A stretch of DNA of 64,000 bases from Candidatus Aenigmatarchaeota archaeon (lineage in GTDB: Archaea > Aenigmatarchaeota > Aenigmatarchaeia > QMZP01 > QMZT01), in contig JAPLVC010000005.1 in assembly GCA_026397315.1 (NCBI GenBank), forward strand, positions 33,737 to 97,736, written 5' to 3'. The stretch's first letter is position 1. Every line of letters begins with the position of its first letter. Positions 57,433 to 63,871 of the stretch are shown here, piece by piece. Under the pieces are notes generated by a model that searched no databases, was not told where the DNA came from, and was given only the letters and a program-made list of their open reading frames with translations. Made by a program: the position numbers and the translations under genes.

Positions 57433-58798
57433 TTTTCGTTTCCATGCCGAATTCATAAAGAACCTTCATAGCTTTTGCAGCGCTCTGCGGATATGAAAAT
57501 GTCGGGATACCTATGTCTTCAAGAGTCTTTTTCAGAACCTCAGTGTAGTCGCCTCCTGCTGAAACCACGAATATAGGCTTTTGGCTCGTTTTGAAAGCGT
57601 TTATTATCGTGTCCACGATTTCTCCACCAAGCCTCGGCACCTGAAGAAGGACTATCAGGCCTATCATATCGACATTCGGATCTTCTATCGCCGCGGTGAT
57701 GGCATACTGGTAGCGTTCCGAATCCGCGTCTCCTGTGAGGTCGATTGGATTTTTCAGGACTACATATGCCGGCATTTTTTTGCGCATCTCTTCTACCTTT
57801 TCTTCCGTCATCGTCGCCAGAGAAAGGCCGTCTTTTATAATGTTGTCCGTGAGCAGGACGCCGAAACCGCCGCCATCTGTTATTATCTGCACTCTGTGGC
57901 CTTTGGGTTTCGGCAGCGATGAAAGCGTACGTGCGTAATCGAAAAGCTCTTCCATATCAGTCGCCTGTATGATGCCTGCCTGCCTGAAAGCCGCTGAATA
58001 AACTTCAAACGAGCCGGCAAGCGAGCCAGTGTGCGAAGAAACGGCCTTAGTGCCTGCGGATGTCGTGCCGCCTTTGAGAACTATTATCGGCTTTTTGCCG
58101 GCGAACTTGCGTGTTATTTCGAAGAACTTCCTGCCTTCTTTCACGCCTTCGAAATATGCGCATATGACTTTCGTCTTCTTGTCGTTTATCAGGTATTCTA
58201 TAAGATCCGCTTCGTCCACATCGGAAGCGTTGCCATAAGAGATAAATTTGGACATCTTGTATCCCTTTCTGGCCATCCAGTCGATAACAACAGAGCCAAC
58301 CGCGCCGGACTGTGTGATGAAAGATATATCTCCGCCTTTGGGCCTGGCGAGTTTGTAACGAGGGAGGAAGACTGTATCAACGCCGCTGTCCGGATCGAAA
58401 ACGCCAAGGCAGTTCGGACCGATGACCCTTATCTTGTGTTTTTTGGCGATGTCAATAAGCTTTTTCTCAAGCTCGTTGTTGCCTATTTCCTTGAAGCCGC
58501 CTGTTATTATTATCACGTTTTTTATGCCCTTTCTGCCGCATTCTTCCAGTGCTTTAGGGACGAGTTCGGCCGGGATTGAAATGACGGCCATGTCCACTCG
58601 CTCCCGTATCTTTGTAACGCTCGGATAGCATTTGAGGCCGAGAATCTGGCTCGTGTTGGGGTTTACGGGGAACACTTTGCCCTTATAATCGCCTTCGACC
58701 ATGTTGCGCATGACCACGTGACCTATTTTGCTCTGGTCCCTGGACGCGCCGATAATGGCGATTGATTTTGGAACGAAAAACCCATCAAGACTTCCCAT
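57398..58798 (-). CDS. acdA: acetate--CoA ligase (ADP-forming) alpha subunit
   Basis: PKSIAIIGAS, IGPNCLG, TQSGA, catalytic His in SHTGSLAG, NPIDLTGDA. Confidence 0.92.
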   Translation of the reverse strand: MGSLDGFFVPKSIAIIGASRDQSKIGHVVMRNMVEGDYKGKVFPVNPNTSQILGLKCYPSVTKIRERVDMAVISIPAELVPKALEECGRKGIKNVIIITGGFKEIGNNELEKKLIDIAKKHKIRVIGPNCLGVFDPDSGVDTVFLPRYKLARPKGGDISFITQSGAVGSVVIDWMARKGYKMSKFISYGNASDVDEADLIEYLINDKKTKVICAYFEGVKEGRKFFEITRKFAGKKPIIVLKGGTTSAGTKAVSSHTGSLAGSFEVYSAAFRQAGIIQATDMEELFDYARTLSSLPKPKGHRVQIITDGGGFGVLLTDNIIKDGLSLATMTEEKVEEMRKKMPAYVVLKNPIDLTGDADSERYQYAITAAIEDPNVDMIGLIVLLQVPRLGGEIVDTIINAFKTSQKPIFVVSAGGDYTEVLKKTLEDIGIPTFSYPQSAAKAMKVLYEFGMETKNDKKCKKNGKK

Positions 58799-58841
58799 AT
58801 TTTTCCCTCAGAGATATTATTGACGAAGATAATATATTATT

Positions 58842-60047
58842 ATGCTAAGAAAAGTGATTTCGCGCAGGATAATCGCCGAGCGTGAAGAAGAGCTTCCGCT
58901 TTCAACGATGGGCGAGCTCATAAAAATCGCCGAAGAAAATAAGGGCATAATTTCCCTCGGCCCGGGCGAACCGGATTTCAACACACCCAAGCATATAATC
59001 AATTTCGCCTGCAAAAAACTGCGTGAAGGTTACACCCACTATTCGTCGCCGGCGGGAAGGCATGGTCTGCGCGAGGCAATAGCCAAAAAGCTCAGGAAAA
59101 ACAACAAAATTGACGTTTCTCCTGACCAGGTCATAGTCACGGCCGGCTCTACTGAAGCGATTTTGCTGGCTCTCATGTGCACGACCGACCCCGGTGAGGG
59201 TGTGCTTCTGCCGGATCCCGGATTCCTTGCCTACAGGCCGACCGTCGAGACTCTCAGCGGCATGCCGCTTTGTGTGCCTCATTACGAGGACGCCGGCTTC
59301 CAGTTCGAAGTTGAAGAAGCGAGAAAGGCCATACTGCCGGAAAAGACGAACGTCCTGATAATAAATTCCCCATCGAACCCGACGGGTGTGGTTTACAAAA
59401 AAAAGACGCTCGAGAAGATAGCTGATTTTGCCTGTGAATATGATTTGCTCATCATATCAGATGAAGCGTATGAAAGACTTGTTTATGGCGGCGAGAAGCA
59501 TGTGTCAATCGGCTCCCTCAATGGTATGGAGAATCGTGTTTTAACGCTTCACACATTCTCGAAGACGTATGCCATGCCTGGTTTCAGGGTTGGTTATGCC
59601 GCCGGACCCGAATGCCTGATAAATGCCATGAAGAAACTGCATCTATACACGACGGTCTGCGCGCCAACAATCTCGCAGGAAGCCGCCTTGGCCGCGCTCA
59701 AGGGGCCGCAAGGTTGTGTTTCAAAAATGGTTAAGGAGTATGACCGCCGCAGGAAACTGATAACGGAGCGCTTGAACGATATCCCGGGCATTTCATGCAT
59801 CGAACCAAGGGGCGCGTTCTACGCGTTCCCCAATATAAGCAGTTTTGGTATGAAATCCTTTGATTTTACAATGTGGTTGTTGAAAAACGCGCGCGTCGCT
59901 ACCACACCCGGCACAGAATTTGGTAAGTTGGGTGAGGGTTATGTGCGCTGCTCTTTTGCAACATCTTATGAAAAAATAAACACCGCCATGGACCGGGTTG
60001 AAAAGGCAACCAAGGTATTGAATAAAAGGAAGAAAAAGACTCGGTGA
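58842..60047 (+). CDS. PLP-dependent class I aminotransferase
   Basis: GEPDFNTP, NSPSNPTG, SDEAY, FSKTYAMPGFRVGY. Confidence 0.95.
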   Translation: MLRKVISRRIIAEREEELPLSTMGELIKIAEENKGIISLGPGEPDFNTPKHIINFACKKLREGYTHYSSPAGRHGLREAIAKKLRKNNKIDVSPDQVIVTAGSTEAILLALMCTTDPGEGVLLPDPGFLAYRPTVETLSGMPLCVPHYEDAGFQFEVEEARKAILPEKTNVLIINSPSNPTGVVYKKKTLEKIADFACEYDLLIISDEAYERLVYGGEKHVSIGSLNGMENRVLTLHTFSKTYAMPGFRVGYAAGPECLINAMKKLHLYTTVCAPTISQEAALAALKGPQGCVSKMVKEYDRRRKLITERLNDIPGISCIEPRGAFYAFPNISSFGMKSFDFTMWLLKNARVATTPGTEFGKLGEGYVRCSFATSYEKINTAMDRVEKATKVLNKRKKKTR

Positions 60048-60226
60048 CCTTTGTTTCCTATGGAAGTTTGTTTTTTATTTTAAAGCTAAGTTTTGTTCGT
60101 AACTATTGTTATTATAACAATGTTATATATTTCCATAAGAAATCTAAAGGCCTTTCCATGAGAAATGATGGTGTCATGGTCTTGGAAAAGAAAAGGCATT
60201 TAAACCCCAGTTTCAAATGGAAAAGC
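60048..60226. other. putative chromosomal replication origin (oriC) with ORB-like boxes and AT-rich unwinding element
   Basis: TTCCAnnnGAAA[C/T]...GG boxes at about 60048-60066(-), 60130-60150(+), 60153-60172(+) and 60205-60223(-); AT-rich tract 60067-60130; directly upstream of cdc6. Confidence 0.8.
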
Positions 60227-61435
60227 ATGGCGCAAAAATCATTGGGGGAAATATTCCAAAATTATGTTGAAAAGAAGTCGGTTTTCAAACAAAAAGATAC
60301 ACTCTCCACACATTTCACACCAGATACAATACCCCACAGGGGCGCGCAGATAAACCAAATCGGCCTTATCCTGGCGCCCGTTCTACGCGGCGAAAAACCA
60401 TCCAACATATTCATTTACGGCAAAACAGGCACGGGCAAATCGCTTTGCGTCCAGCACACCACAACAAAACTGCTGGAAGTTGCCAAAAAGAACGCGAGCG
60501 AAAACATCAAAACCATATACGTGAACTGTAAAATGAGCAAGGTTTCGGATACGGAATACCGCATGCTCTCACAACTCATATCCAATTTTGGCGTCGAAGT
60601 TCCTTTCACGGGCCTGCCCACAAACCAGCTTTACAAACAGTTCTACAGGCTGATTGACGAAAAAAAACAAAACATCATACTCGTTTTGGACGAAGTCGAT
60701 GCTCTTGTCAGCAAGATAGGCGACGGCGTTCTGTACAACCTCACAAGGGTCAACCAGGACCTGAAAAATTCGAAACTCACGGTCATAGGCATATCGAACA
60801 ACATATCATTCATAAACGATCTCGATCCACGCGTCAAGTCGTCGCTCTCAGAAGAGGAAATCGTCTTCCCCCCGTACAACGCCAACGAAATAAAGGACAT
60901 ACTAACCGAGCGCGTGGGCATGGCGTTCAACGACGGCGTCATTTCGCCGGCCGTCATAGCCAAGTGCTCGGCACTGGCGGCACAGGAGCACGGTGACGCG
61001 AGAAAAGCGCTTGATTTGTTAAGGGTTTCTGGTGAAATCGCTGAGCGCCTCAACAACAACATTGTTTCTGAAGACCATGTAGACATAGCCGAACGCAAGC
61101 TGGACATAGATAAAACCATAGAAATCGTCCAGAACCAGCCGAAGCAGTCGCAATGCGTCCTCATGGCCATAATCAGGCTTTTCAAAAGCGGCAAAAACGG
61201 CGTGCAAACCGGCGACATATATGATGTTTACGTGGAGATATGCAGAAAGAACAACATGAAACAGCTGACACAGAGGAGAATATCCGACCTCATATCAGAG
61301 CTGGATATGTTCGGCATAGTTAACGCCAAAGTCATATCAAAAGGCCGCTACGGCAGGACGCGTGAAATAAAGGTCGGACTTTCCAGGGAGATAATAGAAA
61401 AGATAGAAAGGCTTTTCGGGACTGATTTTGCCTGA
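60227..61435 (+). CDS. cdc6: Orc1/Cdc6 replication initiator
   Basis: PHR, YGKTGTGKS, YVNC, VLDEVD, LDPRVKSSL, FPPY, HGDARKALDLLR, winged helix SKGRYGRTR; start 60227. Confidence 0.96.
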   Translation: MAQKSLGEIFQNYVEKKSVFKQKDTLSTHFTPDTIPHRGAQINQIGLILAPVLRGEKPSNIFIYGKTGTGKSLCVQHTTTKLLEVAKKNASENIKTIYVNCKMSKVSDTEYRMLSQLISNFGVEVPFTGLPTNQLYKQFYRLIDEKKQNIILVLDEVDALVSKIGDGVLYNLTRVNQDLKNSKLTVIGISNNISFINDLDPRVKSSLSEEEIVFPPYNANEIKDILTERVGMAFNDGVISPAVIAKCSALAAQEHGDARKALDLLRVSGEIAERLNNNIVSEDHVDIAERKLDIDKTIEIVQNQPKQSQCVLMAIIRLFKSGKNGVQTGDIYDVYVEICRKNNMKQLTQRRISDLISELDMFGIVNAKVISKGRYGRTREIKVGLSREIIEKIERLFGTDFA

Positions 61436-61470
61436 CCGCCTGTTATAATTTTATTCATGAAGGAACTACT

Positions 61471-62352
61471 ATGGAAAAAATGGACATACTGGAGCTTTTT
61501 CTGAAGAACGGCGTCATGCTCTCACCGGAAGAGTTTGAAACTATTGATGAAAAAAACTATATGCACATACTCGAGGAAAAGAGGGGCGCTTCCTCCAAAG
61601 ACGACATAATAGTTTCAAAACCCAGAACCGGCAGGATATCATGCGATCAGTTCGTCAGGGCATCGGTCAACAAATTCGAATTTTTGCGAGGCATCATCCT
61701 TAAAAAAACAGAAGCGGTTTCGATAAACAAGGCCAAGAAAGTCTTTTCCGAAGTCACCATAATAGGCCGTGTTAAGGAGACGTCGCAACGCGGCTTCATC
61801 ATCGAGGACGTTACTGGCGAAGCGGAAGTGGTTTACGAAAACATGGACATAAGCGTTGGCGATGTCATCGGCATGAAAGGGTATTTCAAGGAAAACAGCT
61901 TTTTCCCAAGCCAGGTCGTATGGCCTGACATACCATTAGATAACGTTCCGAAACCGCTCGGCATCAGAATGACGCTGACCACGAAGGTAAAGGACGGCCG
62001 CATGCCGGGCCTGATAGTGTGCCCGGATTCAGAAAAGGCATGCAACGTGGTCACTGGTTTCGGCCGGGCAGGCTCGGTTAACATAACAAAGCACGGATCA
62101 AGCCTTCTTCTCACAGCATATTCGAAGGATGCTGAAATCAAGGAGGAAGATGCTGTAAAAATTCTGAAAAAACGCTCGTTGCCTGTGGATGGGCCGGTAG
62201 AAAACGTTATGGAGGAAATACCACACATAATCTGGTTCTTCGACAACAAAAGGAACTGGGTCAAAAACTACAGGGGCGTCATTATAATATCGACAGACAG
62301 CGAAAGCTTTGCCGACTACGACGGACAGGAGGTTGGCTTCGGGAAGCTTTAG
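61471..62352 (+). CDS. shortened, degenerate DNA polymerase D small subunit (DP1-like)
   Basis: N-terminal LFLKNGVMLSP; OB-fold VTIIGRV...IEDVTG...DVIGMKG...VVWPDIP; C-terminal remnant ILKKRSLP...EEIPHII...NYRGVIIIST; phosphoesterase metal ligands absent; directly after cdc6. Confidence 0.75.
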   Translation: MEKMDILELFLKNGVMLSPEEFETIDEKNYMHILEEKRGASSKDDIIVSKPRTGRISCDQFVRASVNKFEFLRGIILKKTEAVSINKAKKVFSEVTIIGRVKETSQRGFIIEDVTGEAEVVYENMDISVGDVIGMKGYFKENSFFPSQVVWPDIPLDNVPKPLGIRMTLTTKVKDGRMPGLIVCPDSEKACNVVTGFGRAGSVNITKHGSSLLLTAYSKDAEIKEEDAVKILKKRSLPVDGPVENVMEEIPHIIWFFDNKRNWVKNYRGVIIISTDSESFADYDGQEVGFGKL

Positions 62353-62390
62353 CACAACCGTATTTAATAAAAAACATACAAAGGATTATT

Positions 62391-63065
62391 ATGCTGAAAA
62401 TACTTGTGGTGGCAGACATACATGGAGAGTTCGAGAAATTTTCCAGGATGATTGACAAAGTGAAGAGGCGTGATTTCGACGTCGTCATCTGCCCAGGCGA
62501 TTTTACGGACATGTACAACATACCTGAGGGCTTCAACCAGACAGACATCGCCGAGCTGATAATACAGAAGCTCCTGTCTTTAGGCAAGCCGGTTCTTTGC
62601 ATACCGGGCAACCATGAACCATATGAAATAATAGACCTGTTCGATGAATATGGAGTTAACGCGCACGACACGGTGAAAAAGATAAAGGATTATGAGTTCA
62701 TAGGATTCGGCGGCGCCATGACACCATTCAACACGAAGTTCGAACCTCCGGAAGAGGAAATAAAAGCGTCGCTGGAAGCGCAGGCAAAAAAAACAAAGGG
62801 CGATTTCATTCTGCTCGTTCACAACCCGCCGTTCAACACAAAAATGGACAAAGTCGAGACAGGTGAACACGTTGGCTCGAAGGTCATAAGAGAATTCATA
62901 GAAAAAACCAAGCCCATTTTAGCGCTATCGGCGCACATACACGAGGCAGTGGGCATGGATAAAATAGGCAGGACGACGCTCTTCTACCCGGGCGTCTCTT
63001 ATGAAGGTTATTATGGTATAGTGGAAATCGGAAATGAAGTTAAATGTGAAATAAAAAAAGCATGA
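62391..63065 (+). CDS. calcineurin-like metallophosphoesterase
   Basis: ADIHG, PGDFT, PGNHE, VHNPP, HVGS, AHIHE. Confidence 0.92.
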   Translation: MLKILVVADIHGEFEKFSRMIDKVKRRDFDVVICPGDFTDMYNIPEGFNQTDIAELIIQKLLSLGKPVLCIPGNHEPYEIIDLFDEYGVNAHDTVKKIKDYEFIGFGGAMTPFNTKFEPPEEEIKASLEAQAKKTKGDFILLVHNPPFNTKMDKVETGEHVGSKVIREFIEKTKPILALSAHIHEAVGMDKIGRTTLFYPGVSYEGYYGIVEIGNEVKCEIKKA

Positions 63066-63087
63066 AAGCGGGTTTCACGCGTTCACA

Positions 63088-63807
63088 TCATTGTATTGTT
63101 TTCAGCCTGCCGAGTATTTCTTCTATCGATTCAATGCGGCAAAGGGCGACTGGTATTGATTCGACCTCAGCTATGTTCATGGCAATTTCATTCACTTTGT
63201 CTATGCCGTGAAGCACGACAAGCCCGGGCTGCATGCCCGTGAGCTTGATAGCGACCAGCGGAGTCTTGCCTGTCGTCACGCCCGTGAACAAAAGCGCCCG
63301 TTGTGTGGTGGCGCCATATAGCTGTATCAGCTGGTTGTGCGAAAGCTCCAGGATCGCTTTCACAGAGTCGACGACCGTGTAGCCGTATATGAACCTGTCT
63401 GAAGGCGAAGATTTGGTAATTATGGGTGCGTTTATTTTCCTGCAGAATTCGTCCACGCGTATGCCAGCGGCGAACTCGCGTATGTCTATGATGGCTTTCG
63501 AGAGCCCGACCGGGCCCGAAGGCTGTGTGAACGTCTTAAGGACAGTACCGCCTCTCTTAATGTCTATCGAAATGAGCGCATTGACATAACGTTTTATGAC
63601 GTTTATACCCGGTGATTTTCTACGGCCGGACTCGTAATCGGATATGACGGATGACGTAATGCCTATATATTCTGCCAGCTTCTTCTGGGAGAAACCGAAA
63701 ATAACCCTCCATTTTTTCAGGACCTGCTCAGGGGTTTCGGAAAGTATAATCTCCCCTATTATGTCCTTGGACAACTTATCCATCGAAAGTCGATTTTCGT
63801 CAATCAT
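63088..63807 (-). CDS. XRE-family HTH transcriptional regulator (archaeal COG1709 type)
   Basis: GEIILS, LKKWR..FGFSQKKLA..GITSSVISDYESGRRKSPG, GYTVVDS, RALLFTGVTTG. Confidence 0.9.
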   Translation of the reverse strand: MIDENRLSMDKLSKDIIGEIILSETPEQVLKKWRVIFGFSQKKLAEYIGITSSVISDYESGRRKSPGINVIKRYVNALISIDIKRGGTVLKTFTQPSGPVGLSKAIIDIREFAAGIRVDEFCRKINAPIITKSSPSDRFIYGYTVVDSVKAILELSHNQLIQLYGATTQRALLFTGVTTGKTPLVAIKLTGMQPGLVVLHGIDKVNEIAMNIAEVESIPVALCRIESIEEILGRLKTIQ

Positions 63808-63847
63808 AGAAACAATTTACGTTGAATTACTTAAAAACGTTTCTTCG

Positions 63848-63871
63848 ATGTTTAAACGGATGTTTAAACAC
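63848..63871. promoter_or_regulatory. tandem ATGTTTAAAC motif upstream of HTH regulator
   Basis: ATGTTTAAACGG-ATGTTTAAACAC, 12-bp period, as at 22274. Confidence 0.5.

Follow-up and report, generated by a model that had tools for sequence, protein, structure and literature searches.

A shortened, nuclease-dead DP1 homologue as the likely second subunit of a family-B DNA polymerase in Candidatus Aenigmatarchaeota

The 293-aa protein encoded directly after the orc1/cdc6 gene of this archaeon (hereafter mini-DP1) is, as profile and sequence comparisons show, a homologue of DP1 over its whole length that has been shortened and has lost its nuclease activity. This nuclease-dead form is likely to be the structural second subunit (B-subunit) of a PolB of the B6-aenigma1 type. 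The arrangement of an inactive DP1 with a B6 PolB is already published for Aenigmatarchaeota (2020 and 2025). Most Aenigmarchaeota lack DP2 and carry a group of inactive DP1, and their PolB group B6 has a CTD zinc motif whose closest counterpart is found in DP2 (Kazlauskas et al. 2020, PMC7544198). The authors of this study proposed that the exonuclease of PolB itself afforded the inactivation of DP1. Furthermore, AlphaFold3 models and yeast two-hybrid assays show that Aenigmatarchaeota DP1 binds PolB-DP2CTD and does not bind canonical PolBs (Nat Ecol Evol 2025, PMC12680538); the same work attributes the two-finger 'B6-aenigma2' sequences to contamination from Baldrarchaeia. The locus described here is one more example, which adds the most reduced subunit in our sample, a stepwise reduction series and a quantified linkage to an intact metallophosphoesterase.

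The window, i.e. the whole stretch of 64,000 nucleotides that was analysed, corresponds to positions 33737-97736 of contig C2 in an assembly of 1.05 Mb (seven contigs, 91% complete). The contig terminates at the last base of the window (64000), 1.65 kb beyond the mini-DP1 gene. The ORF of mini-DP1 is intact and begins 35 nt past the stop of orc1/cdc6, i.e. in the cdc6-DP1 position to which the original prediction had assigned it (Table 1). The listed ORF of orc1/cdc6 starts at 60044 and includes an N-terminal extension of 61 residues that lies outside the family model NF001625, and the orthologue on a near-identical contig is called at 402 aa without this extension. The true start of orc1/cdc6 is probably Met62, at about position 60227. 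Such a start frees about 180 nt (60044-60226), where origin boxes had been placed in the original prediction.

Table 1. Features of the mini-DP1 locus (positions are those of the window)
Feature	Position	Strand	Evidence
orc1/cdc6 initiator gene, directly upstream of mini-DP1	60227..61435	+	NF001625, E 7e-152 (residues 63-454); Pfam Cdc6 domains
Inactive mini-DP1 gene (B-subunit-like, 293 aa)	61471..62352	+	ORF, DP1 homology, fold, dN/dS 0.20
N-terminal helical domain, residues 1-37, equivalent to DP1N	61471..61581	+	hhalign to true DP1 N-terminus; model helices 3-12, 19-24 and 30-37
Linker helix and OB fold, residues 58-161, with WPDIP end (151-155)	61642..61953	+	NF003118, PDB profile match, structural superposition
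Reduced phosphoesterase-domain remnant, residues 162-293, without metal-binding motif	61954..62349	+	hhalign, reduction series, no conserved His/Asp
Calcineurin-like metallophosphoesterase, intact, 224 aa, 38 nt downstream of mini-DP1, co-oriented	62391..63065	+	PF00149, E 3e-22; PF14582
HTH_3 protein, 239 aa, between the phosphoesterase and the contig end	63088..63807	-	PF01381, E 3e-10

The best-conserved parts of mini-DP1 are its N-terminal DP1N-like domain and its OB fold. The original prediction that the protein retains the N-terminal helices of DP1 and an OB fold ending in WPDIP is borne out by several comparisons. The NCBIfam DP1 model NF003118 matches residues 55-161 (E 3.9e-14, 52.5 bits for a cut-off of 445), and a profile of 25 family members matches P. 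abyssi DP1 (5ihe) over residues 27-163 (E 3e-7). Moreover, a sister family is the only one in the phylum to retain PolD, and hhalign against its true DP1 gives a probability of 99.2 (E 1e-19) over residues 1-168. This alignment begins at residue 1-2 with the N-terminus of true DP1, runs through the helical domain, the linker and then the OB fold, and lines up WPDIP (residues 151-155) with RPDIP of true DP1. A Pfam search with the 293-aa protein returned no match at E ≤ 1, PF04042 included. As judged by this model, mini-DP1 is not a member of PF04042 (DNA_pol_E_B), although it is predicted to be B-subunit-like in fold.

The AlphaFold model of mini-DP1 has a mean pLDDT of 81.7. Its best Foldseek match is Pyrococcus (P. 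abyssi) DP1 (E 2e-12). Next come B-subunits, namely those of Pol epsilon, delta, alpha and zeta, with E-values from 3e-9 to 1e-7 for epsilon, delta and alpha. The OB fold superposes with Z of 10-11.6 and rmsd of 1.6-1.8 Å. The superposition of the whole chain on DP1 is poor (rmsd 10-13 Å) because of the deletions and of a different domain arrangement, and was counted as fold-level support only.

In the C-terminal part, the pattern ILKKRSLP .. EEIPHIIWFFDNK .. NYRGVIIIST aligns to LKRRH .. VPDIFHSGHLH .. NYKxV..INS of DP1. When a narrow family profile of the last 130 residues is compared with true DP1, only local hhalign detects a similarity (probability 75%, E 2.6e-5), global hhalign giving nothing for this part of the protein. 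The segment aligned locally is the one that the original prediction had named as DP1-like (LKKR.. / ..IPHIIWFFDNK.. / NYRGVIIIST). By contrast with the narrow profile, a broader one, for which 105 representatives of the short family were used, can be aligned over the whole length of true DP1 (columns 3-473 of 475; probability 99.9, E 2.5e-37). This implies that the C-terminal domain is the DP1 phosphoesterase domain minus about 160 residues. Motifs I-III were located in the deleted part, which amounts to roughly half of the domain, and the remnant has substitutions in motifs IV and V. In the alignments, all five metal-binding motifs (DxH, GD, GNHD, H, GHxH) are absent or deleted, and the C-terminal domain of the family contains no conserved His or Asp. 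The predicted loss of all metal ligands and of a large part of the phosphoesterase domain is therefore upheld.

A graded, stepwise reduction of DP1 is visible across the families of the phylum. Full-length copies of true DP1 have 472-494 aa and possess all five motifs, while forms of 369-386 aa keep a motif I-like DxH and have lost GNHD. Further forms have 357, 343, 327 and 308 aa. The 293-aa form, which lacks every motif, is the shortest in this sample, the inactive forms of other families having 308-386 aa. Homology, motif loss and Foldseek matches to B-subunits all agree with the dead scaffold, similar to eukaryotic B-subunits, that had been predicted from the sequence and that was already in the literature.

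The mini-DP1 family is no product of chance: it comprises 250 representative clusters at E ≤ 0.001 and is matched in 141 of the 151 genomes sampled from the phylum; the homologues carry the source names Aenigmarchaeota or Aenigmatarchaeota. Against the same-genus orthologue, dN/dS is 0.20 overall, 0.16 for the N-terminal part and 0.27 for the C-terminal part. For remoter orthologues, synonymous sites are saturated and protein identity is still 34-57%. Furthermore, 25 positions are invariant across 25 sequences that reach down to 35% identity. The mini-DP1 gene is thus functional and under purifying selection.

The candidate partner of mini-DP1 is a PolB whose C-terminal Cys4 zinc finger resembles the C-terminus of DP2. 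All 11 sampled relatives from the family, the same-genus genome included, encode a PolB located 3-5.5 kb from the DP1-like gene. A zinc-finger PolB lies on the same contig and within 7 kb of the DP1-like gene in 11 of the 11 other genomes of the family and in 26 of 31 genomes of the order. Among 33 B6 PolBs, the four Cys, the exonuclease residues D169, E171, D249, Y346 and D350, and the polymerase residues D445, D583 and D585 are all invariant. The same-genus genome (G104) shows 91.5% DNA identity with the window over positions 58286-63870. It carries, in this order, genes for an acetyl-CoA synthetase, an aminotransferase, orc1/cdc6, the 293-aa protein, the 224-aa metallophosphoesterase, an HTH protein, a TctA-like protein and a convergent PolB of 881 aa that ends in a CxxC..CxC finger. 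The gene order of a near-identical metagenome contig is the same.

A B6 PolB was not found in the present assembly, either by a genome search or by tblastn with the whole PolB of G104 or with its CTD. The sole PolB found in this assembly is a canonical one of 821 aa that is 31% identical to the G104 PolB (G000:C1:65836-68193; L005 1369-3834, minus strand). It has intact exonuclease and polymerase motifs and a C-terminal PIP-like motif (QRSLNMFM), and has no zinc finger. Both types of PolB, canonical and zinc-finger, are present in most genomes of the order. We infer the partner PolB of this organism from its relatives and from the end of the contig 1.65 kb downstream of mini-DP1; the B6 PolB gene would sit just beyond this end.

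A complex of mini-DP1 with the last 86 residues of the PolB of G104, which is another species of the genus, was modelled using for each protein its own family alignment. The model scored 0.73, the best of three controls reaching 0.24. This mark of 0.73 is attained by 58 of 80 solved complexes and by 2 of 110 mismatched pairs, counts that apply only roughly here, because own alignments were used for the model. The three runs of the complex model share at least 98% of contacts, with a pLDDT of at least 66 for the partner. The contacts involve, on mini-DP1, the linker helix (51-69), the OB fold (100-114 and 129-130) and a loop of the remnant (240-243) and, on PolB, the region around and after the finger (834-881). 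The model supports binding of mini-DP1 to the CTD of PolB as a prediction; since like complexes are among the solved ones (DP1-DP2, B-subunits with CTDs), the pass may reflect this likeness and not binding of this particular copy.

In the arrangement that we favor, the zinc-finger tail of PolB would dock on mini-DP1, at the OB fold, the linker helix and what remains of the phosphoesterase domain. The docking would follow the model of the DP2 C-terminus with DP1 and of the CTDs of eukaryotic catalytic subunits with their B-subunits. Proofreading would be carried out by the exonuclease domain of PolB, and we propose that the nuclease of DP1 became dispensable as a consequence. The N-terminal domain of DP1 binds Gins51 in Thermococcus (Oki et al. 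2021, PMC9023282). By pure extrapolation from this case, a link between the polymerase and GINS/CMG may persist through the retained DP1N domain; the genome does encode GINS (contig C3:93448-93762).

The neighboring metallophosphoesterase gene raises another question, namely whether its product supplies in trans the activity that DP1 has lost, as a third component acting with mini-DP1 and PolB. The active-site residues of this enzyme are invariant, and it is better conserved than mini-DP1 (56-77% vs 35-70% identity) in broadly the same taxa. Its gene directly follows the mini-DP1 gene, in the same orientation, in 12 of 12 genomes of the family. At the level of the phylum, this gene and the DP1-like one could both be placed in 80 genomes, and in 69 of these they share a contig at a distance of at most 4 kb. 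In other families the phosphoesterase gene lies beyond orc1 or a spacer of about 1 kb, the order being phosphoesterase, orc1, DP1-like gene and PolB. At E ≤ 1e-20 the family with true PolD gave no match to this enzyme, which speaks for a supply in trans, but at the same threshold several families with a dead DP1 gave none either. Moreover, its fold is nearest to aq_1956 and TT1561, then to Mre11/SbcD and GpdQ, DP1 being outside the top 50 matches, and its profile similarity to the DP1 phosphoesterase is generic, extending to motifs I-III only. An unrelated TctA-like gene is also a conserved neighbor, even of true DP1. Part of the linkage of the phosphoesterase could therefore be explained by an inherited origin-proximal gene order. 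Since PolB has its own exonuclease in addition, a split of the nuclease function between mini-DP1 and this enzyme is improbable.

A functional link between the metallophosphoesterase and mini-DP1 is possible but unproven. We would give only a small chance to the proposal that this TT1561/aq_1956-type enzyme belongs, as a third functional component, to the replication module of PolB and mini-DP1. As such a component, it might act in trans, as a nuclease or phosphodiesterase that has assumed a task of the lost DP1 nuclease. Its move into the transcription unit of mini-DP1 in this family belongs to the same proposal and is equally doubtful. The observation that a dead DP1 is linked to an intact metallophosphoesterase may itself be new. 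A 'split DP1', in which the neighbor would be the detached nuclease domain of DP1, was also considered and rejected, as mini-DP1 keeps its own remnant, the fold of the neighbor is nearest to other proteins and its profile similarity to DP1 is generic.

A further possibility is that mini-DP1 acts without any B6 PolB, as an adaptor for GINS/CMG, as a single-strand-binding OB protein or as a partner of the canonical 821-aa PolB. The higher conservation of the DP1N-like domain and of the OB fold would fit such roles, as would the binding of DP1N to Gins51 in Thermococcus (PMC9023282) and the absence of a B6 PolB from the assembly. However, the C-terminal remnant is under purifying selection as well (0.27), and the zinc-finger PolB accompanies the family, in synteny with it, across the order. 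In addition, no contact with canonical PolBs was seen in yeast two-hybrid assays (PMC12680538), and the complex model with the CTD passes. Hence, a function of mini-DP1 independent of B6 PolB is very unlikely, and a role as second subunit of this polymerase accounts better for these data.

The position of the gene in the classical oriC-cdc6-DP1 slot, together with an assembly that is just 91% complete, could also be reconciled with a PolD whose small subunit has no proofreading nuclease, replication being then error-prone or proofread in trans. The original prediction had drawn such an inference of a replicase lacking intrinsic proofreading, with a second intact DP1 encoded elsewhere as another option. 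The searches point in a different direction. In the 91%-complete assembly, the DP2 model TIGR00354 has no match at E ≤ 1, PF03833 has one weak match alone (E 0.042, 12 bits, below the cut-off) and PF04042 has none. A second DP1 was not found in the assembly using NF003118 and PF04042. The only other NF003118 match, a weak one on contig C5, falls in a class II Asp/Asn-tRNA synthetase and corresponds to its anticodon-binding OB domain. Within the phylum, true DP2 occurs in 8 of 151 sampled genomes, i.e. in one family (7 of 7 genomes) and in one further genome. With few exceptions, the remaining DP2 matches extend over about 30 residues, correspond to DP2 positions 1013-1046 approximately, and are mostly located in ORFs of about 900 aa. 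Full-length DP2 was not found among the 34 sampled genomes of the order. Their DP2 matches are short zinc-finger ones in ORFs of about 880-960 aa, which proved to be PolBs where checked. A divergent DP2 in the relatives was also rejected, as the two ORFs examined are PolBs, in which the exonuclease and polymerase domains are followed by a CxxC..CxC finger at the C-terminus. Furthermore, the exonuclease motifs are intact in both types of PolB, and the published yeast two-hybrid data point to PolB as the partner (PMC12680538). With no PolD detectable in the assembly and with PolBs that have an exonuclease of their own for proofreading, the inference that proofreading is lost fails, and a PolD devoid of its nuclease is highly improbable.

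Finally, a decaying DP1 relic without function, which the loss of all catalytic motifs and the large deletion might suggest, can be dismissed as most improbable in view of the family match in 141 of 151 genomes, the dN/dS of 0.20, the 25 invariant positions in sequences down to 35% identity and the confident predicted fold (mean pLDDT 81.7).

Among known systems, the closest is the inactive DP1/B6-aenigma1 PolB of Aenigmatarchaeota (PMC7544198), which shares with the present case the phylum, the inactive DP1, the absence of DP2 and the proposed B-subunit role. The PolB of the relatives likewise has a single DP2-like Cys4 motif at its C-terminus. Nothing essential differs, except that the subunit is here in its shortest form, that PolB is three genes away in the relatives, and that PolB is missing from the assembly. 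The assignment of mini-DP1 to this published inactive-DP1 group rests on taxon, architecture and context. Canonical DP1 (P. abyssi, 5ihe, 6t8h; NF003118) has in common with mini-DP1 the N-terminal helical domain, the OB fold, the order of the phosphoesterase strands and the position after orc1/cdc6. In contrast, mini-DP1 lacks the five metal motifs, about 160 phosphoesterase residues and a detectable DP2 partner.

The B-subunits of eukaryotic Pol alpha, delta and epsilon (4y97, 6tny, 5vbn) also combine an OB fold with an inactivated phosphoesterase domain, and they bind a catalytic subunit of family B through its zinc or Fe-S CTD, a role to which that of mini-DP1 can be likened. Their inactive phosphoesterase domain is of full size and matches PF04042, whereas mini-DP1 is about 150 residues shorter and has no PF04042 match; the CTD has two Cys4 motifs in the eukaryotic system and one in B6 PolB. 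In Baldrarchaeia, PolB3-DP2CTD with DP1 (PMC12680538) is another archaeal system in which DP2 is absent, DP1 is kept and PolB is fused to a DP1-binding CTD of the DP2 type. Baldrarchaeia are Asgard archaea, and their CTD is longer and closer to the DP2 and eukaryotic CTDs, whereas that of Aenigmatarchaeota is called degenerate and is shorter (PMC12680538). Among prokaryotes, a PolB that docks on an inactivated DP1 by means of a DP2-derived zinc finger would come closest to the two-subunit core of Pol alpha, delta and epsilon in eukaryotes. The arrangement thus bears on the origin of eukaryotic replicases, a point made in 2020 and tested in 2025.

Several other features of the locus can be mentioned. 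The position of the HTH_3 gene is shared with the same-genus genome and with the near-identical contig. The C-terminal two thirds of its product are uncharacterised, and in a distant family (G019; L022:9352-9999 (+)) an HTH_3 gene is again present, facing orc1. This protein may be a conserved origin-proximal regulator. The TctA-like membrane gene is a recurrent neighbor of DP1 or DP1-like genes and of PolB genes, including in the family with true DP1 (L026:5640-6845; L020:4085-5167; L024:1014-2210; L023:7030-8205). Some gene order around the origin is conserved without an obvious role in replication. The assembly break falls just ahead of the expected TctA and PolB genes, and the final 130 nt of the contig (63871-64000) do not align with the otherwise 91.5%-identical genome G104, which could be due to strain variation or to an assembly problem. 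In G118, a genome of the order (C16:7102-10869), matches to the zinc-finger type of PolB are distributed in three separated pieces of a 1730-aa open frame, which suggests that this PolB gene holds one or more inteins.
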